From IMG/VR virus record IMGVR_UViG_3300022602_000026: DNA of 64,000 nucleotides. One strand, given 5' to 3'. The stretch's first letter is position 1; each line of letters begins with the position of its first letter. This DNA is from a virus (lineage: Duplodnaviria > Caudoviricetes). Below the pieces are notes generated by a model. The model made no database searches. It worked only from the letters and a program-made list of their open reading frames with translations, and was not told the DNA's origin. Position numbers and translations under genes: made by a program. Shown in pieces: positions 9,574-54,530 of this stretch.

Positions 9574-10449
9574 ATGATTATATCAAATAACGGCATTCAT
9601 GTATTTGTATTTTGTTGTGCAGAATACGAACACTTTCTTGACGAATGCATTGATTCAATCAAGCTAAATGTACTTGATACCGTGCTATCACTTAACATAG
9701 TAACAAACACATCGATAACACGTACTGGATGTAACACAATTAAAGATCCCGACTTTTGGGCACGAATCGATCCCGACTTTAAGTTTAAAAATTTATACAA
9801 TCACAATTGGATTAAACAACAAATTTTTAAACTTGCAGTTGACGAATATGTCAATGGTAATGCATTGATTGTCGACGCCGAAGTTTTATTCGTCAATAAA
9901 ACTCAATGGATTGTTGACGGACGAGTAGATATGTACACCGAAGACATAATGCCACAATTGGACCGTGACACTAGAAACATGTTACGAGATGTTGTAGATC
10001 TAGAACGACAACTTGATGCCAGTTTTGTAACCGAAAGTATGATTTTTGTTACCGACGTATTAAAAGAAATAAAAACTCAAATAGAACAAAAACATCGCCA
10101 ACCCTGGCTTGAAGTGTTTGCCGATCTGCTACTAGTAGGAATAGAAAGAAATCCTTTGTACATCATGTCCGAGTATGACATATACGGGAATTACTTTTAC
10201 AAAAATTATAGGCCATTGGTCAATCAAATTAAACAAAAACGTTTCGACAATTATATTAGTCGACCTCGAGCCAACGCAACCAGCAACACCGGCGGCAAAA
10301 CCAAATGGTTGACTTTTTATCAACAAATACGTGGCCAGGAGTGGCCCGACTGCAACAACGAAGAAGATTTTAAAAATCTTCCGTATCATATACAACAAGA
10401 ATGTATCAATGAATTTGGTTACAACCCCGAATTACACGGTAACAAATAA
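9574..10449 (+). CDS. Glycosyltransferase-like protein (DUF6492-like) with C-terminal WPDC module
   Basis: WIKQQIFKL, LIVDAE, MSEYDIYGNY. Confidence 0.6.
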   Translation: MIISNNGIHVFVFCCAEYEHFLDECIDSIKLNVLDTVLSLNIVTNTSITRTGCNTIKDPDFWARIDPDFKFKNLYNHNWIKQQIFKLAVDEYVNGNALIVDAEVLFVNKTQWIVDGRVDMYTEDIMPQLDRDTRNMLRDVVDLERQLDASFVTESMIFVTDVLKEIKTQIEQKHRQPWLEVFADLLLVGIERNPLYIMSEYDIYGNYFYKNYRPLVNQIKQKRFDNYISRPRANATSNTGGKTKWLTFYQQIRGQEWPDCNNEEDFKNLPYHIQQECINEFGYNPELHGNK

Positions 10450-18034: not shown

Positions 18035-18537
18035 ATTTTATAGAATCAGTAAAAGGTGCTTTACCGGACTATGCAAAAGACACCAAGTTAAACATGGATG
18101 CGGTATTACTACGTAGTACCTTAGATGCAGATGTGGCTATAGGATGTGCAGTGGCTGCCTTGGCTGCAACTGGCAATGGTAAACTTTTAAGCGTACTACT
18201 AGCAGATGCTCCTGTTTATGCAGATGCAGCAATGACTGCAGCGTCAATCATGGCCCAAAACAATGTATGGTATCCCTACGTTGAAATGGCCGATGATCCT
18301 GCACTTGCCGGACTACCTGCAGGCTTACGCATGAACGCTATTGCCTCACATGGCGGAACAACCAAAAGCAATTTTGAAGCATTTAGTTTGGCTGCCTCAA
18401 TTGTGGGCAAGTGTCACTTCTGTGTCAAGGCACATTATGAAACACTGAAAAAAGAAGGCTATACTGTAGAGCAACTACGCGACATCGGACGTATTGCCTC
18501 AGTTATCAACAGTGCCGCAAAGGTGTTGAACAGTTAA
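18031..18537 (+). CDS. ahpD: Alkylhydroperoxidase AhpD
   Basis: GKCHFCVKAH CxxC motif, NNVWYPY, follows ahpC. Confidence 0.9.
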   Translation: MNFIESVKGALPDYAKDTKLNMDAVLLRSTLDADVAIGCAVAALAATGNGKLLSVLLADAPVYADAAMTAASIMAQNNVWYPYVEMADDPALAGLPAGLRMNAIASHGGTTKSNFEAFSLAASIVGKCHFCVKAHYETLKKEGYTVEQLRDIGRIASVINSAAKVLNS

Positions 18538-19439
18538 ACTCTAACCGCAGTTACTCGAGTATTACAAGCAACGGCTACAAACCTATCCTGTCCAAATGTG
18601 ATGGCAGTCCAAGGTTGTGTAGCCGGCATCGCTTCGGTGTGCCAAGTTATGCCATCACTACTGACTGCTGCCACATTGCTGTTATGTGCAACCGATATAA
18701 AAGTACCATTCCCGTAAGCAATACTGGTCCATTGTTGTGCACCGGGCAACGTAGAAGCAGTCCAAGTATGTCCATTTAGACTGTATGCAGCAACATTGCT
18801 ATTGGCAGCAACTGCAACAAATCGATTATTGCCAAATGCCAATCCAGTCCAATTTTGTGCCACGGGCATGGCATTACTGGTGACCCAACTTGCTCCAGTG
18901 GTACTGCTAGAACTACTGTTACTATTTGAAGTTATAGCAACAAATTGACCAAGACCATATGCTACCTCGGTCCAAGGCAAACTTATGTCCATCAAGCTAT
19001 TGGCCCAATCATGTGGATCTGGGGTAACTCCCACAGTTTGATTTCCGTAAGGGTAACCAAATTTTGTAGTAAATCCCGACCCTACTGCAACAAAGTAATC
19101 AGAACCGTAAGCAACACTCTGCCAATTTTTTGATTTTGGTAAGTTAACAAAAGTCCAATTGGCACCGTCAATGCTGATAGCCGAATACGCACCTGTAGCA
19201 ACAGCAACAAACTTGCCGTTACCGTATGTGATATTTTGCCAATACGCATTGACCGGCATTATACTGGTTAAGTATCTACTGGGACTAGAAGGTTGTGTAA
19301 CTCCCGGAGTCCAAGTTATTCCGTCGGTACTGTACGAAGAGTTAGAGCTTATATTGGCAACAGTGGCAAATATACCGGCACCGTATGCGATTCCTGACCA
19401 AGCGTCGGGGGTGTTTATTGTTCCTGTGGTCCAGGTCAT
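18534..19439 (-). CDS. Beta-propeller repeat protein (late)
   Basis: Repeats WxxxAYGxGxFVAVA; TAAATA and AAAGGA upstream of ATG 19439. Confidence 0.8.
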   Translation of the reverse strand: MTWTTGTINTPDAWSGIAYGAGIFATVANISSNSSYSTDGITWTPGVTQPSSPSRYLTSIMPVNAYWQNITYGNGKFVAVATGAYSAISIDGANWTFVNLPKSKNWQSVAYGSDYFVAVGSGFTTKFGYPYGNQTVGVTPDPHDWANSLMDISLPWTEVAYGLGQFVAITSNSNSSSSSTTGASWVTSNAMPVAQNWTGLAFGNNRFVAVAANSNVAAYSLNGHTWTASTLPGAQQWTSIAYGNGTFISVAHNSNVAAVSSDGITWHTEAMPATQPWTAITFGQDRFVAVACNTRVTAVRV

Positions 19440-19459
19440 TTTGAGTCCTTTTGAGTATT

Positions 19460-19521
19460 TATTGTAAAAATACAACAATTTATCCAAAGAGCTTTACAAC
19501 GAATCATAAATAAACTATAAT
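19460..19521 (+). promoter_or_regulatory. Operator-like palindrome plus sigma70 promoter; predicted TSS at the leader ATG
   Basis: TATTG-N8-CAACA (19460-77); TTTACA(19493)-17-TATAAT(19516); nested TAAATA. Confidence 0.75.
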
Positions 19522-19527
19522 ACGAAC

Positions 19528-19662
19528 ATGATGCAAAACATTACGAAACATTCGCAACTACAACTGATAGCCAATTTAGGTGGGACAACCTATTGGTCAC
19601 AGTTCGATGCAATGCCCGCATCAATTAATAGTGATCGTGAACCAAGAGAGGGTTTAAGTTAA
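19528..19662 (+). CDS. 44-aa putative attenuator leader peptide
   Basis: MMQNITKHSQLQLIANLGGTTYWSQFDAMPASINSDREPREGLS*; last codons and stop form the 5' arm of the antiterminator. Confidence 0.7.
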   Translation: MMQNITKHSQLQLIANLGGTTYWSQFDAMPASINSDREPREGLS

Positions 19663-19720
19663 CGTATAATATCAAATCATATTTTAACTTAAACCCTGGA
19701 CTAAACACCCAGGGTTTTTT
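19649..19720 (+). terminator. Attenuator: antiterminator versus intrinsic terminator
   Basis: Perfect 14-bp IR 19649-62/19684-97 overlaps terminator aaaccctgg(19691-99)/ccagggttt(19709-17) plus T6. Confidence 0.85.
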
Positions 19721-19735
19721 AATGAGGAAAGAAAT

Positions 19736-19888
19736 ATGAGAACAGAAAAGAAAAAGTTATTGGAGCAAGTGCCTGCTGTTCTTACACAGGAACAAAGGCT
19801 AGCTCTAATAGAAGCCAAGTTGGCAAGGGCCGAGCACTATGTGCAGGCTCTAGCCAAACAGGCAAAACGATTAGCTGAAAAACGCTGA
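19736..19888 (+). CDS. 50-aa basic helical protein, first gene after attenuator
   Basis: GAGG RBS; MRTEKKKLLEQVPAVLTQEQRLALIEAKLARAEHYVQALAKQAKRLAEKR. Confidence 0.7.
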   Translation: MRTEKKKLLEQVPAVLTQEQRLALIEAKLARAEHYVQALAKQAKRLAEKR

Positions 19889-19890
19889 TC

Positions 19891-20030
19891 AAAAGTGTTA
19901 AGGAAACGAGGTCCTAGCATCACTTTAAAAATGCAAACGGGCGGACAGGATACATGAATGGCATGGCGACAACTTGCCGAGTAAGACTCCTGGGTAGGGT
20001 ATCAACCCTATCATATCCTCTACCAAGAGG
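19891..20030 (+). ncRNA. Possible structured RNA
   Basis: Hairpins aaagtg/cacttt, cagga/tcctg, taggg/cccta, atatcctct/agagggtat; no ORF. Confidence 0.4.
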
Positions 20031-20125
20031 GTATTCTAAAACACACCAGATGACAATTCCTGGGGGCAATGAGAGCCCACTAAGGCAGGCACGGATCCCG
20101 TGATAACTGGTGTGTTTTAGAATAC
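20031..20125 (+). ncRNA. Stem-closed structured RNA (AAAACACA family)
   Basis: Perfect 19-bp IR gtattctaaaacacaccag/ctggtgtgttttagaatac with inner hairpins. Confidence 0.65.
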
Positions 20126-20219
20126 AACACCCAGACGAAAGAAGCCGATAGATTGATAAACTATGACGGGGCAGTTCGCAAGATAAGTGTTCCAACTGTG
20201 GTGTTGTGTTACTTACAAT

Positions 20220-20310
20220 GGAAGGCCAATCCAAATGGCGATGGAACCGGTCTTGAAAACCGTCGAGCGTTAATAACGCCTTTAGAGTTCGACTCTCTAG
20301 CCTTCCGCCA
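20220..20310 (+). tRNA. tRNA-Ser(TGA)
   Basis: Cloverleaf, loop CTTGAAA, long variable arm, CCA. Confidence 0.9.
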
Positions 20311-20331
20311 AAATCTCACCGCTTCCGCCAA

Positions 20332-20601
20332 TGTTGTATTTGTGCAACACCGCAGTTGTTCAGAAATGACAACTCAGTTATAATAGATACAAGTTAAGCA
20401 ATTAACTGAAGTTAAGCAATTAACAAGTGTTGTATAACAACAACATCAAATTTGCAAAGAAATGATGTCTAAGTTATAATAGATACATGTTAAGAAATTA
20501 ACTAAGTTTAATTGATTAGCAAGTGTGTAGTGTAAATGCAACATCAAATTTGCAAAGAAATGATAAAGCAGTTACAATACATATATGTTAAGAAATTAAC
20601 A
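20332..20601 (+). promoter_or_regulatory. Three tandem operator-promoter units
   Basis: TGTTG(or TGTAG)-N8-CAACA, 6 nt, -35 TTGTTC/TTGCAA, 17 nt, TATAAT/TACAAT, then GTTAAGMAATTAAC; units start 20332, 20428, 20526. Confidence 0.8.
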
Positions 20602-20677
20602 GTAACAAATGATTGAGTTAGTTACAGAGTTCATTAAAAAATTATTTAGGTAGTGCTAGTTTTGCTTGGCAACAAGC

Positions 20678-20938
20678 ACTACTTTAAAACACATTTGAGG
20701 TTACCTACACCGTTAGGTTCTCTAGGAGAGGAGCAAGGGTGCCGACTCACGCAATCCTAGGGCAACATGAAACAGAGCAGTAATGCTTGGCGATAGCGGC
20801 GGACAGGTAGGCAGTAATGACGAACTGAAGTCTGTGCAGACGGTGCACCGGGATGTTATCGAGCGTAAACCCTTATTAGGTAACGAACGGGTTGTGAGAC
20901 GACAGAGGGGAGTTCCTCAAGTGTTTTTTAAAGTAGTT
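20678..20938 (+). ncRNA. ~260-nt structured RNA, unclassified
   Basis: 23-bp closing stem (one mismatch, one G-U), GUAA-capped hairpin, several internal complementary blocks, no ORF. Confidence 0.7.
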
Positions 20939-21839: not shown

Positions 21840-21868
21840 TTGACAGTAAATGATGTTACTGTTACAAT
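21840..21868 (+). promoter_or_regulatory. Sigma70 promoter
   Basis: TTGACA-17-TACAAT. Confidence 0.8.
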
Positions 21869-21879
21869 AAGAAATCAGT

Positions 21880-21953
21880 TGGGGATTAGTTAAATGGTAT
21901 AACAGTGGATTTTGATTCCATCGTCGAAAGTTCGATTCTTTCATCCCCTGCCA
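21880..21953 (+). tRNA. tRNA-Gln(TTG)
   Basis: Loop TTTTGAT, CCA. Confidence 0.9.
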
Positions 21954-26771: not shown

Positions 26772-26845
26772 GCTCTTGTAGTTAAGTGGCATAACACAGT
26801 CTTGGTAAGACTGAATAGAAAGTTCGATTCTTTCCTAGAGCACCA
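26772..26845 (+). tRNA. tRNA-Thr(GGT)
   Basis: Loop TTGGTAA. Confidence 0.9.
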
Positions 26846-26846
26846 G

Positions 26847-26875
26847 TTGACAAATAAATAGAATGATAGTATAAT
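26847..26875 (+). promoter_or_regulatory. Consensus sigma70 promoter with nested TAAATA
   Basis: TTGACA-17-TATAAT. Confidence 0.85.
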
Positions 26876-26885
26876 AGATACTAAT

Positions 26886-26959
26886 GCGGGATTAGTTTAA
26901 TGGTAAAACAGAACCTTGCCAAGGTTCGGACAGGAGTTCGATTCTCCTATCCCGCTCCA
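26886..26959 (+). tRNA. tRNA-Gly(GCC)
   Basis: Loop TTGCCAA. Confidence 0.95.
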
Positions 26960-29689: not shown

Positions 29690-31555
29690 ATGAAAAATAT
29701 ATACTTAATACAACCCAATGAGATGCAGGAGTTCCAAGGTAAAAAAATATTTTGGTTGCCCTACACCTCGGGGGTGTTGTGGGCCTATGCACTACAGTTT
29801 CCCGAAGTAAGCAATAATTATTGTTTACAGGATTTGATGTTCCATAGAGAAAAAATCAGTTCGGTGGTTGATCGCGTATTGCCCAATTCTATTTTTGCAT
29901 TCAGTTGTTATATATGGAATTGGGAATACAATAAAAAATTAGCACAAGCAATCAAAGAACGATATCCCGACTCGTATATTGTTTTCGGTGGGCCGCAGGT
30001 GAGTGACCGTCCATTGGAAACTGACTTTTTTAAAAAACACAAATACGTTGATACTATTGTACTAGGCGAAGGTGAAGAATCATTTACACGACTATTGATA
30101 GACTATGTTGATGGTAAAAAAACAAAGATATACAATAGTAAACGTTTAGAAAATGTCAACACTCCCAGTCCATACCAAGTTGGTGTATTTGATAAAATAA
30201 TTGCCGACAATCCCGAGTTCCACTGGAATGGAGTACTAGAAACAAATAGAGGATGTCCGTTTGCTTGTACCTTCTGTGACTGGGGAGGACTAACATACAG
30301 CAAAGTTAAACAACTGCCTATTGATCGTGTTGATCACGATATTGAATGGTTTGGTATAAATCAAATCGAATACATAGCTGTAGCCGATGCAAACTTTGGA
30401 ATTTTCAAAGATCGAGATTTAAAGATTGCTAAAAAGATCACAGACGTTAGATTAAAGTATGGATATCCGGCAAATTTAAATATCAACTTTAATAAAAATC
30501 AAACCTCGGACATAGTAAACATAGTAAAGGTACTTGCCGAAAGCGGACTTAACCGCGGATTAACTATTAGTTTTCAAAGTCTTGATGACGATGTACTAGA
30601 AGCTATCAAGCGCAAGAACATGGCCATTAGCAAAAGCGAAGAAATATTTCGACTGCTCGAAGAGTCCAATCTAACTCACTATTCGGAAGTTATTTGTCCT
30701 TTGCCTTTAGAAACATACGATACTTGGCGAGCCGGTTTAATCAAATTAATAACTGCCGGACAACATCAATGTATTGATGCTTTCTTTACTGCTGTATTAG
30801 AAAACAGTGAAATGAATCAACCCGAATATAGACGCAAATACGATATTAAGTCTATAGAACGAGAATACATATTCTTCTTTCACTTTGGCGCCGAAGACGT
30901 ATTAACCGAAGAAGCCACAGAAAAAATAAACTTAATTGTCTCGACCAGTACAATGAGTCTTGATGATCATATACGCAGTTGGATGTATACTTGGCTTATT
31001 ACAAATTTCCACATATATGGTTGGACACAGATCTATGCTAGATTTTTAAATGCACACAACATCAAGTATGATGTGTTCTACGATTGTCTCTTAGATGAAA
31101 TTGCAAATCAACGCATGGGATTTTTAAGCGAACAATATCTAGAAGTAAAACGCATGATAACATTGTTACTAACCGAAGGTAGTAACTTAAAGGATGTGGG
31201 ACTCAGTCCTGATGTAATTAGATTTAGTCAACGATATTTCCATCGTAATCGAAAATTGGTTGAGCAGTTGTTGGCCGACTATGTCAAAACTCAATTTGAT
31301 CCAGAGAACTTTGTTAATCTACATCGGTACCAAATCAATTTTGTATCTCACATGGATCAAGGCGAATCAAGACACGAGGTACTGGACCTGGGAATAAAGG
31401 ACACAATAACAAAAGGTGTGCCCTACCAAGAAAACCTAAAGGAATGCACAGTAGCACCAGTGGGAACTTATTCCAGCCAAGAAGAATTTTTAGCTAAAAC
31501 AATCATGCATAGAAGAAATGGTTTTGGCAAAAATCTAATACTTGACAAAGAATAA
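29690..31555 (+). CDS. Cobalamin-binding radical SAM protein
   Basis: FSCYIWN, VFGGPQ, GEGEE, ETNRGCPFACTFCDWG. Confidence 0.92.
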   Translation: MKNIYLIQPNEMQEFQGKKIFWLPYTSGVLWAYALQFPEVSNNYCLQDLMFHREKISSVVDRVLPNSIFAFSCYIWNWEYNKKLAQAIKERYPDSYIVFGGPQVSDRPLETDFFKKHKYVDTIVLGEGEESFTRLLIDYVDGKKTKIYNSKRLENVNTPSPYQVGVFDKIIADNPEFHWNGVLETNRGCPFACTFCDWGGLTYSKVKQLPIDRVDHDIEWFGINQIEYIAVADANFGIFKDRDLKIAKKITDVRLKYGYPANLNINFNKNQTSDIVNIVKVLAESGLNRGLTISFQSLDDDVLEAIKRKNMAISKSEEIFRLLEESNLTHYSEVICPLPLETYDTWRAGLIKLITAGQHQCIDAFFTAVLENSEMNQPEYRRKYDIKSIEREYIFFFHFGAEDVLTEEATEKINLIVSTSTMSLDDHIRSWMYTWLITNFHIYGWTQIYARFLNAHNIKYDVFYDCLLDEIANQRMGFLSEQYLEVKRMITLLLTEGSNLKDVGLSPDVIRFSQRYFHRNRKLVEQLLADYVKTQFDPENFVNLHRYQINFVSHMDQGESRHEVLDLGIKDTITKGVPYQENLKECTVAPVGTYSSQEEFLAKTIMHRRNGFGKNLILDKE

Positions 31556-31570
31556 CAAAGAGTATATAAT
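31542..31570 (+). promoter_or_regulatory. Consensus sigma70 promoter
   Basis: TTGACA-17-TATAAT. Confidence 0.85.
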
Positions 31571-31576
31571 AGCTAT

Positions 31577-31651
31577 TGCAGGGTGGAGAAGTGGCAACTC
31601 ACCGGGCTCATAACCCGGAGATCACAGGTTCGAATCCTGTCCCTGCTACCA
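31577..31651 (+). tRNA. Initiator tRNA-fMet(CAT)
   Basis: 1:72 mismatch, GGG/CCC anticodon stem, loop CTCATAA. Confidence 0.92.
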
Positions 31652-41446: not shown

Positions 41447-42304
41447 ATGAAAAATAAAATATACGATTGTTTTACATTTTATAATGAACTTGATCTATTA
41501 GAAATACGTTTACGTGAATTATACACTCTAGTAGACGAGTTTGTCATTGTGGAATCTAACCAAACATTTACCGGCAATAAAAAGCCCTGGAACTTTGAAG
41601 CCAATGTAGATAGATACAGCAACTACATGGACAAGATCACTTATGTTCGAGTCAAAGACATGCCCAATACCGGCAATCCCTGGGACAACGAAATACACCA
41701 AAGGAATGCAATACTACGCGGAATCAAAGACGCTAAAAAAGATGATTTGATCATGATATCGGATGTGGACGAGATCGTTCGTCCTCGAGCAGTGGAATAC
41801 ATGCGCGACAGTGATCAAACACTGTTTGCTCTAAGAATGCCAATTTATAATTTTAAATTTAACTATATGAAATTAAATCCAGACCGTTATAATATCTGGG
41901 CAATGGCAGCAAGGAAAAGTACATTCAGCGACATCACTCCCAATAGTCTAAGAGATTTACGATTCAGCTTCTTTCAAACTCCGTACCAATTCAAAAACGA
42001 CGGGTGCGAAGTCATTGAACATAGCGGATGGCATTTTGGTTATTTGGGCGATAACGACATGCTAAAAAACAAAGCTCAAAATTTTAGCCATCAAGAAGTT
42101 AACCGTCCCGACTTCCTAGAACAAATTGATGTTGAAACCAGCATACGAAATCGCAAGAGCTGGGATCAAAGCAGTCAGGATCAGTATGTAATAGTCAAAT
42201 TAGACAATTACTTTCCTAAATCACTAGTTGATTATCCCGAGTTCGTACTAGAAGAATTTGAACATACTGCATTTGACTTACTACCAGAATTTCCATATAA
42301 TTAA
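41447..42304 (+). CDS. Glycosyltransferase family 17
   Basis: YDCFTFYNELDLLEIR, EIHQRN, ISDVDEI, GWHF. Confidence 0.9.
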   Translation: MKNKIYDCFTFYNELDLLEIRLRELYTLVDEFVIVESNQTFTGNKKPWNFEANVDRYSNYMDKITYVRVKDMPNTGNPWDNEIHQRNAILRGIKDAKKDDLIMISDVDEIVRPRAVEYMRDSDQTLFALRMPIYNFKFNYMKLNPDRYNIWAMAARKSTFSDITPNSLRDLRFSFFQTPYQFKNDGCEVIEHSGWHFGYLGDNDMLKNKAQNFSHQEVNRPDFLEQIDVETSIRNRKSWDQSSQDQYVIVKLDNYFPKSLVDYPEFVLEEFEHTAFDLLPEFPYN

Positions 42305-42307
42305 CCT

Positions 42308-43024
42308 ATGACACACAAATTCGCATTCATGGTAACCAGCGCCATTAACACCAAGTTTGGCGTTTACGACACCGACACTAGACTAAAACAAACACTAGAA
42401 ACCGTTGTCAGCATTAAAAAATATGTACCCGATGCTCGAATCATTTTAGTTGAATGTGGGGCAATACCTTTAACCCCTGTACAGGAAACAACTCTTGAAG
42501 CCGAAGTAGATGAAATTATCAGCTATAACGATGACGAAGACGTCAAGGCAATCTTTGTATCAGACAACTGGGACGTGGTTAAAAATACCACAGAAGTAAT
42601 GTGCTTTAGACGTGCATTGCAACATTGTTTGGATTATAATTTATTTAATGACGTTGACCGTGTATTCAAAATGTCGGGACGTTATAGACTAAATGACAAC
42701 TTTGATCCAGCACAATACGTTATGGCTCCGCACAGTATTGTTACAACACATAAACATGCCAGTCAATTTCCCTATCAAGTCACACTAGTAGAATATCAAT
42801 ACATGAGCCGACTGTGGAGTTGGCCTGCCGACATTACACAACGCATCATTGATGAAGTGTACGATGCTGGCTTAAACTACATGGCCGAACGTTTGAGCCA
42901 AGGTGGCTACTGTGATATTGAACACATGCTTTACAAATTCCTACCGGCCGATTTAATATTAGAAGTTGCCAAAGTGGGACTAGAAGGCAACATTGGACCA
43001 AATGGAGCAACAGTAAGTGATTAA
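42308..43024 (+). CDS. Hypothetical glycan-cluster protein (GT-like)
   Basis: VTSAIN, FKMSGRY, DIEH. Confidence 0.6.
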   Translation: MTHKFAFMVTSAINTKFGVYDTDTRLKQTLETVVSIKKYVPDARIILVECGAIPLTPVQETTLEAEVDEIISYNDDEDVKAIFVSDNWDVVKNTTEVMCFRRALQHCLDYNLFNDVDRVFKMSGRYRLNDNFDPAQYVMAPHSIVTTHKHASQFPYQVTLVEYQYMSRLWSWPADITQRIIDEVYDAGLNYMAERLSQGGYCDIEHMLYKFLPADLILEVAKVGLEGNIGPNGATVSD

Positions 43025-53295: not shown

Positions 53296-53346
53296 GCCCC
53301 AATTGGGGCTTTTTCTTTTGACACAACTTGTAAATACTGTTATAAT
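53296..53346 (+). promoter_or_regulatory. Terminator followed by sigma70 promoter with nested TAAATA
   Basis: gcccc-aatt-ggggc + T run; TTGACA(53318)-17-TATAAT(53341). Confidence 0.85.
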
Positions 53347-53351
53347 ACACT

Positions 53352-54530
53352 ATGAACCGATACACCACAGTTGAAGATTACTTAGAAGTCATTGCAGGAA
53401 TTCGAGATCCTGTGACACTAAAAACCAAACCTCATTCTTGGCTAAATGATTTTGATCCCATAGTCAGTTTGGCACGTTATGATACCGATGTGCTAAACAG
53501 TATGAGCACAACTGCCAGTGAAGGTCGTGCACTGACAGAAAAACAAGGCGAACTAGCAGTCAAGATTGTGTTAAAGTACAAGCGACAATTGGCCGCAAAA
53601 GACGTAGATGTATCCCCAGTTGAGGAACGAGCTATGTGGCGCTTGCCGTTGCGTAAAATGGATTATACTCGCAAACTTGATGTTGTAAACGATATGTTAC
53701 AGGTTACATTTCCTTTTAACAATCAGTTAATTGAAGGACTACGTGACTTTAGAAAAGAAAGTCAAGGACATGGATCTTGGGACAAAGAAGCCAAAGTTTG
53801 GAGTTTTGCACTCACCGAATATAATCTGGTTTGGCTCTCGACCTGGGCCGATCAAAATCAATTTGACATTGGCCCAGAAGTACGTAGACTAAACAATTTA
53901 GTCAGCGAGGTTGAATCCAGCCCGTTTGCAATTGAACTAGTATTCAAAGATGATCAATTAAGCATCACCAATTGTCCCGAAAGTTTACATGAGTATATTG
54001 AAAACAACCTGGGCGGATTTGGCGCGGACAATTTGTTGCGTTTGATTGACATGAGTGCAGTATTGGGTTATACAGTCAGTCGAGCAATAGCAGATCAAGT
54101 AGTAGCCGCCAGCACTCCTCGTTTTTACAATCTTGCAGTCAGTAGAGAAGTCAAGTTAGATCCTACTGCAATTGAAGAAAATCTTACAAGTGTGCTAGAC
54201 TACGCAGATGAAATGCAACGTTGGCCAGTTGTGATCTATGAACCCGATCTCAGCGACAAACTGTTTGAAAAATTTAAACAACTACGAGAAGGTGTAGTTA
54301 AAGTTCCAAGAGCTACCCCAGTGCAATCCTTAGACGCAGGATTCAAATATTATCACGTACAAGCGCCAATAACAAAAGTGCCAATACCATTACTGATCAG
54401 CAGTGCCGGTATGATGTTTGGCGGAGATAAAGCACTAATGGTTCAGAACGCAGAAAAGGTTGTTTACTGTGCTGCAGAAGTGTATAATAAGAAAATAGAA
54501 ACTAAGGTAGAAAAACTTGCAGACTTGTAA
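53352..54530 (+). CDS. Conserved hypothetical protein upstream of helicase
   Basis: 392-aa ORF coupled to uvsW. Confidence 0.75.
   Translation: MNRYTTVEDYLEVIAGIRDPVTLKTKPHSWLNDFDPIVSLARYDTDVLNSMSTTASEGRALTEKQGELAVKIVLKYKRQLAAKDVDVSPVEERAMWRLPLRKMDYTRKLDVVNDMLQVTFPFNNQLIEGLRDFRKESQGHGSWDKEAKVWSFALTEYNLVWLSTWADQNQFDIGPEVRRLNNLVSEVESSPFAIELVFKDDQLSITNCPESLHEYIENNLGGFGADNLLRLIDMSAVLGYTVSRAIADQVVAASTPRFYNLAVSREVKLDPTAIEENLTSVLDYADEMQRWPVVIYEPDLSDKLFEKFKQLREGVVKVPRATPVQSLDAGFKYYHVQAPITKVPIPLLISSAGMMFGGDKALMVQNAEKVVYCAAEVYNKKIETKVEKLADL

Follow-up and report, generated by a model that had tools for sequence, protein, structure and literature searches.

The amino-acid operon leaders trpL, hisL, and pheL of Escherichia coli carry a translated leader ORF upstream of an intrinsic terminator, one strand of which is shared with an antiterminator; a ribosome at the end of the leader favors the terminator, and an earlier hold-up favors readthrough. 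Leaders of this class have four RNA segments, use a run of codons for the cognate amino acid, and control biosynthetic enzymes. In the arrest peptides TnaC, SecM, and SpeFL, the conserved part adjoins the end of the ORF and acts inside the exit tunnel. Long leader ORFs without an amino-acid codon run are found in BmrB-bmrCD of Bacillus subtilis (53 aa in BmrB; PMC4191407) and toiL-topAI of E. coli (PMC12121999), in which alternative stem-loops respond to the ribosome as a general sensor of slowed translation. Both are cellular genes led by a Shine-Dalgarno (SD) sequence, with resistance or toxin cargo. The bmrB terminator is located within the ORF, where loss of translation lowers expression (PMC4191407), and toiL works by occlusion of the ribosome binding site (RBS) and by Rho (PMC12121999). 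The leaderless polycysteine short ORFs of mycobacteria are first-cistron sensors in which the position of the ribosome remodels the downstream RNA; they are cellular, use Cys codon runs, and control RBS access (bioRxiv 10.1101/834739). In the literature that we searched, ribosome-mediated transcription attenuation was described for cellular operons only, with no phage example, and that literature held neither a leaderless attenuator with an intrinsic terminator nor one with a structured RNA and a tRNA as cargo.

Here we analyzed a 64,000-nt stretch of DNA from a virus of the Caudoviricetes (Duplodnaviria; IMG/VR record IMGVR_UViG_3300022602_000026), hereafter the window, in which a comparable layout precedes a small group of genes (Table 1). 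The phage leader shares with trpL, hisL, and pheL the order of leader ORF and intrinsic terminator as well as the strand common to two competing hairpins. It has three segments instead of four, and the hairpin inside its ORF does not overlap the putative antiterminator, HP1; because a fourth segment is lacking, an untranslated phage leader is predicted to read through and not to super-attenuate. Unlike the trpL class, it has no codon run and no SD sequence, spans 39-45 codons, encodes a conserved peptide, and precedes a small ORF, a structured RNA, and a tRNA. An earlier note on this DNA had likened the geometry to trp/his-type attenuation; the likeness extends to the (predicted) translated leader and the exclusive folds, and fails for the number of segments and the codon run. 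With BmrB and toiL the element would share the general sensing of slowed translation, but its predicted response to lost translation is the opposite of that of bmrB, and it would use neither the RBS occlusion nor the Rho of toiL. If it is indeed leaderless, the phage leader is placed like the first-cistron ORFs of mycobacteria, but it faces an intrinsic terminator. Its C-terminal SDREPxxGLS motif adjoins the stop codon as the conserved parts of TnaC, SecM, and SpeFL do; it contains no known arrest motif, and any stalling there would be hypothetical. The Rfam rnk leader (RF01771) likewise combines a hairpin with a terminator, and positions 19625-19726 match it with 21.1 bits (E = 0.65), which is far below the gathering score of 50 and was treated as chance.

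Table 1. Positions of the leader element, its downstream genes, and other promoters of the window that abut a start codon or a tRNA.
Feature	Coordinates	Strand	Details
Sigma-70-type promoter	19493..19521	+	TTTACA 19493-98, 17-nt spacer, TATAAT 19516-21
Leader ORF	19528..19662	+	44 codons + TAA (19660-62)
ORF-internal hairpin	19570..19597	+	RNAalifold
HP1 hairpin (putative antiterminator)	19649..19697	+	arms 19649-62/19684-97, inner stem 19664-67/19679-82
Intrinsic terminator	19691..19720	+	AAACCCTGG 19691-99 / CCAGGGTTT 19709-17, 9-nt loop, T6 19715-20
First cargo, 50-aa ORF	19736..19888	+	SD GAGGA 19724-28; product basic, helical
Second cargo, structured RNA (~300 nt)	19890..20219	+	starts near GGGCGGAC; perfect 19-bp stem 20031-49/20107-25
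tRNA-Ser(UGA)	20220..20310	+	ARAGORN; last gene ahead of the tandem promoters 20332-20621
Promoter abutting ATG, 238-aa gene	42296-42310, ATG 42308		without SD
Promoter abutting ATG, 392-aa gene	53312-53354, ATG 53352		without SD
Promoter abutting tRNA-Met	31536-31577		
Promoter abutting tRNA-Gln	21840-21880		
Promoter abutting tRNA-Gly	26841-26886		

Relatives of the element were collected via the downstream 50-aa ORF, by DNA patterns, by searching protein collections for the leader peptide, and by looking up the encoding contigs. This gave 17 distinct versions of the leader from lake and bog metagenome contigs, down to ~50% peptide identity. The DNA-pattern searches are biased to an unchanged 5′ arm of HP1; the protein-based searches are free of that bias and supplied the diverged members. 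For example, an exact search of viral contigs for a diverged arm variant returned no match, and the variant was recovered by protein-profile search and contig look-up. Among cultured-phage records the tRNA-Ser alone was matched; neither the leader nor the 50-aa ORF nor the 317-aa neighbor upstream had a relative there. In Rfam, nothing over the element reached threshold, and the miRNA-like hairpin matches were noise.

The promoter matches the consensus at 11 of 12 positions and is the best match in the region 19300-20700. Its -35 and -10 elements and the 17-nt spacing are kept among the relatives (TTGACA or TTTACA; TATAAT or TACAAT), and it is kept where the genes upstream of it vary. An ATGATG begins at the seventh nucleotide past the -10 element, with 6 nt between them. 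In the relatives this distance is 6-7 nt, and the whole range to an ATG across the 17 is 6-10 nt; three diverged relatives have kept only the second ATG, with the -10 element 9-10 nt ahead of it. No SD sequence was found upstream of the leader ATG in the window or in any relative. The same layout occurs elsewhere in the window, where consensus promoters end 5-6 nt ahead of the ATG of two long genes. In relatives of the 392-aa gene (48-81% identity), a scan of viral contigs found differing promoter sequences at the same 5-7 nt distance from the ATG. Leaderless long genes were also sought in the contigs related to the window, and none was found because these contigs are fragments. Given the promoter-abutting ATG at the leader and at both long genes, leaderless expression is a credible habit of this phage group, and we predict that the leader ORF is leaderless, with transcription starting at or near its ATG.

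An SD sequence was present in only 16 of the 40 window genes checked. Promoters of the form TTGACA-17-TAYAAT, perfect or near-perfect, end 6-11 nt ahead of the 5′ ends of tRNA-Met, tRNA-Gln, and tRNA-Gly, and some tRNAs may thus be transcribed with almost no 5′ leader. Upstream of the leader promoter lies a repeat-rich 317-aa gene (18534-19487, minus strand) that is absent from most relatives and looks like an insertion. In L005/L006 and L063 an AhpD/CMD-like gene stands immediately ahead of the promoter, and in L007, L013, and L028 only the upstream repeat is seen there. All of these relatives have a perfect 13-bp inverted repeat (GGATAAATTGTTG...CAACAATTTATCC) just ahead of the -35 element, of which the right half alone survives in the window.

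The leader frame is open in all 17 relatives over 39-45 codons. About eight indels separate the relatives within the leader and every one is in frame, the two remaining frames contain 2-6 stops, and pairwise dN/dS is 0.2-0.7. This comparative evidence identifies the leader as a short ORF that is presumably translated, and its peptide as being under purifying selection. The C-terminal motif [IV]xSDREPxxGLS is kept via synonymous third-position changes (GAT/GAC, CGT/CGC, CCA/CCG/CCC, TTA/CTC/CTT, and TAA/TAG in the stop codon), and Leu43 is kept by synonymous codon switches even where they break a pair of the stem. Conserved residues are spread along the length of the peptide (H8, G18, W23, D36, E38, and GLS), and the middle varies freely in length and composition. 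The motif itself admits R-to-C and P-to-S variants, and in L069 one codon between it and the stop is deleted. No protein family was found for the leader peptide or for the 50-aa ORF in PHROGs, Pfam, or a protein atlas. A pure translation sensor needs no selection on its peptide, so the conservation counts against such a sensor and points to a functional small protein or to a nascent-chain (arrest) effect.

As counted in the earlier note, the leader uses 32 distinct codons and 18 amino acids and has no run of regulatory codons or of a single residue. The weight that the note gave to this diversity has to be reduced: 44-codon background windows from the phage's own genes contain 27.6 ± 2.5 distinct codons and 6% of them reach 32, so the figure is correct and only marginally unusual (P about 0.06). 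Broad codon sampling was rejected as a design feature for this reason. Serine codons UCA and UCG make up 3 of the 44, compared with 1.19% in the phage (5.7-fold enriched, P = 0.016); every relative has 1-4 of them, scattered along the leader. The whole leader folds better than shuffled sequences (z = -3.3). Its internal hairpin has two compensatory pairs, where a synonymous change on one side is balanced by a non-synonymous change on the other, and the outer CCAAU/AUUGG pairs recur in most, not all, diverged relatives; this hairpin possibly acts as an RNA polymerase pause hairpin.

The last four codons of the leader, together with its stop codon, make up the 5′ arm of HP1. The two arms pair perfectly over 14 bp and extend inward to imperfect arms of 22 nt with a 5-nt loop, whose sequence is not conserved. 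Two perfect 14-bp hairpins with loops of 3-30 nt occur in the window versus 0.017 expected from Markov-1 simulations; the other one, at 9781-9834, has a 26-nt loop and lies inside a 291-aa ORF (9574-10449). Across the 17 sequences, 98.7% of the HP1 cells are paired, compared with at most 57% in slid-register controls. Compensatory changes were found at 7 of 18 pairs, a number reached by none of 500 shuffles, and these counts rest on a handful of events, the 17 relatives representing few lineages. In 17 of 17 relatives the 14-nt 5′ arm ends with the stop codon. Among the findings that would refute its model, the earlier note had listed a stop position that is not conserved relative to the stem; the relatives show the opposite.

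The 3′ arm of HP1 and the 5′ arm of the terminator have 7 nt in common (19691-97). A GC-rich terminator stem and a tract of T5-T8 follow in all 17 relatives, with the canonical 3-nt loop in L070. The 9-nt loop in the window is atypical, and a scan with an 8-nt loop limit missed the terminator for that reason. The free RNA has HP1 as its minimum-free-energy fold in 15 of the 17 relatives. Masking of the 5′ arm and the next 12 nt, which mimics a ribosome on the stop codon, let the terminator form in 17 of 17 (-12 to -21 kcal/mol). Where the shared strand has changed, it can still pair with both partners: the basal HP1 pairs change from A-U to G-C alongside terminator stems CCCCGGG/CCCGGGG or CCCCAGG/CCTGGGG, and G residues that replace A at 19691-93 pair with C in HP1 and form G-U pairs with the U tract in the terminator. 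With 7 nt in common, a covarying HP1, and these computed folds, the antiterminator and the terminator are mutually exclusive. At equilibrium without masking, antiterminator occupancy is 66-100% in 10 of 11 relatives. The balance is fine, with full HP1 at -18.6 kcal/mol and the combination of upper HP1 and terminator at -18.5 kcal/mol; the difference is 0.1-2.4 kcal/mol in all relatives but L013 (5.9), and L064, L065, and full-length L028 favor the terminator state even when no ribosome is present. From these near-isoenergetic folds and the lean of the three relatives, the switch may have a narrow dynamic range, or its terminator may just be leaky. The end of the stop codon is 28 nt from the terminator stem; in E. 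coli, a terminator 28 nt past a stop codon is ~90% efficient, and one 5 nt past it is blocked by the ribosome (PMC4824070).

The anatomy in the earlier note was therefore correct in its coordinates, namely the TTTACA-17-TATAAT promoter with the ATG at 19528, the perfect 14-bp stem, and the T6 terminator sharing 7 nt with it. The relatives add to it the conserved leaderless geometry, the covariation of the stem, and two exclusive folds that covary and respond to masking of the 5′ arm as predicted. Two other readings of the hairpins were rejected. HP1 as a stimulator of frameshifting or stop-codon readthrough is contradicted by the sequence upstream of it, which has no slippery site, and a bidirectional terminator by the lack of a convergent minus-strand gene.

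The reading that we prefer, and to which we assign about an even chance of being right, treats the element as a transcription attenuator that is gated by the ribosome, consists of three segments, and heads a small transcription unit of the phage. In this reading, host RNA polymerase would start at or within 3-4 nt of the AUG to produce a leaderless leader mRNA, on which a 70S ribosome would load once the 5′ end emerges and then trail the polymerase. A ribosome at the last codons or on the stop (19649-62) would cover the 5′ arm of HP1 and leave 19691-97 free to pair with 19709-17, so that the terminator would form and transcription would end at ~19720; because the stop ends 28 nt ahead of the terminator stem, the ribosome would not obstruct it. 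If the leader is untranslated, or if the ribosome lags or stalls before approximately codon 38, HP1 would form first, only 2 nt of toehold would remain for the terminator, and readthrough would allow transcription of the 50-aa ORF, the structured RNA, and tRNA-Ser(UGA). The coupling kinetics and the response of termination to translation in this scheme are predictions from the conserved architecture. The earlier note had proposed that a stall at any codon gives readthrough, which cannot be maintained: a ribosome stalled from about codon 38 onward would cover the 5′ arm in the same way as one that terminates at the stop.

A more specific sensor can be imagined on the same scaffold, in which the SDREPxxGLS nascent chain keeps the ribosome at the stop codon, or rare UCA/UCG codons read the supply of tRNA-Ser(UGA); we think this unlikely. 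As regulators of tRNA-Ser(UGA), the UCR codons were set aside because serine codons can arise neutrally from NCA, some of them are too near the stem to favor readthrough, and tRNA-Ser is not always downstream.

A consensus scan found no sigma-70-like promoter between 19521 and 20451, so the cargo needs readthrough of the terminator, although it may have a promoter for a phage-encoded polymerase downstream of the terminator. The 50-aa ORF is 74-92% identical in relatives and 46-56 aa long in the diverged ones; it is missing in L022, L065, and L067, where the structured RNA begins ~25 nt past the T tract. An alignment of the structured RNA from eight relatives folds at -77 kcal/mol, compensation is visible in its helices and includes several hairpins, and the GGGCGGAC motif was found downstream of the terminator in 9 of 10 added loci checked, the exception being L069. 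No Rfam family matched 19890-20219 at E≤10. tRNA-Ser(UGA) occupies the same position in most relatives. It is replaced by tRNA-Pro in L064, and ARAGORN found no tRNA downstream of the leader in L067, L068, L069, L070, and L071 over ~900 nt of locus. Since the ORF and the tRNA-Ser are absent or swapped in some relatives, the structured RNA is the cargo found most consistently. Three independent promoters in tandem (20332-20621, tandem repeats) drive the main tRNA array, as the earlier note had cautioned with respect to independent promoters; the controlled cluster that it proposed accordingly comprises the small ORF, the structured RNA, and tRNA-Ser, and does not include the array. The metatranscriptome evidence comes from contigs of one run, covers the tRNA-Ser stretch only, and is silent on where the leader RNA starts and ends and on how abundant it is. 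The 3′ end of tRNA-Ser (CTTCCGCCAA) recurs exactly 20 nt further downstream (20302-20331), which may be the footprint of recombination or insertion at the tRNA end.

The conserved peptide can also be taken at face value. The leader would then be an ordinary small early gene followed by a constitutively leaky terminator, which sets a fixed ratio of short to readthrough transcripts or stabilizes the 3′ end, and its translation would have no regulatory effect. Purifying selection, conserved residues along the whole peptide, and the retention of Leu43 at the expense of a stem pair all agree with this explanation, and the near-equality of the folds makes fixed partial termination plausible. Yet a simple weak terminator would yield the same fixed ratio, and the explanation accounts neither for a stop codon held at the same 3 nt of the arm in every relative nor for a 14-bp hairpin with a 7-nt overlap kept by compensatory changes on both partners; we regard it as a real but rather unlikely possibility. 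The earlier note had favored a sensor that would register the loss of any tRNA, for instance to host anticodon nucleases, and would release the phage tRNAs and RNAs by virtue of its broad codon sampling. The geometry of such a sensor is that of the attenuator, its codon diversity is in the upper 6% of the background, its cargo includes a tRNA, and phage tRNAs are known to counter tRNA-targeting defenses (PMC11555353). However, the diversity is not significant, no particular codon set is kept in the freely varying middle, and a single tRNA stands behind the attenuator (tRNA-Pro or none in some relatives), the main array having its own three promoters. Moreover, phage tRNAs can read 40 of the 44 leader codons, an ordinary share given 84% for other genes, and the conserved peptide suggests that the product or the nascent chain matters. 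Hence the tRNA-loss claim is unsupported, and we consider it quite improbable.

Two further possibilities concern the RNA itself. The terminated transcript of ~190 nt might be the product, as a dual-function small RNA that both encodes a peptide and base-pairs with targets, like rnTrpL. The superior folding of the leader and the compensatory changes in the internal hairpin, which override amino-acid identity, would suit this function, and attenuator RNAs that act in trans have a precedent (PMC6614838). No target or seed region is identifiable, however, and coding and switching explain much of the conservation, which makes such a small RNA very improbable; it would not exclude the attenuator model in any case. 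HP1 could instead be a processing or protein-binding site without antiterminator function, such as an RNase III substrate separating the leader mRNA from the RNA genes. Its arms of ~22 bp with internal mismatches have the size of an RNase III substrate, and it heads a unit whose stable RNA and tRNA need processing. On the other hand, its apical loop is not conserved, cleavage would deprive the leader of its stop codon, and neither the 7 nt that HP1 shares with the terminator nor the coordinated changes in three strands would be explained, so that this role is hardly to be expected.

If the ribosome-gated attenuator is real, the virus would time the release of RNA-level cargo by monitoring translation in real time through the host ribosome, and the model would give a starting point for working out what an unclassified conserved phage RNA does. 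Were the specific sensor also true, synthesis of the unclassified RNA, the basic protein, and tRNA-Ser(UGA) would be coupled to the translational state of the cell, and RNA genes of a virus would be under the control of a ribosome-mediated attenuator, with possible autoregulation of a tRNA. Because the element is compact (~230 nt) and the comparative data specify which mutants to make, it is directly testable in vitro, though the phage and its host are uncultured.

The window contains a T4-type large terminase, a UvsW-like helicase, and 29 tRNAs. The related contigs are fragments of 56-120 kb, rated 16-34% complete; the 120 kb of L029 at 34% completeness suggests a genome of roughly 350 kb, that is, a jumbo phage. 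L029 and related records carry peroxiredoxin, AhpD-like, radical-SAM/B12, and other metabolic genes. The nearest cellular relatives of AhpC are mostly from Burkholderiales (65-70% identity), a weak hint of a host in this order.
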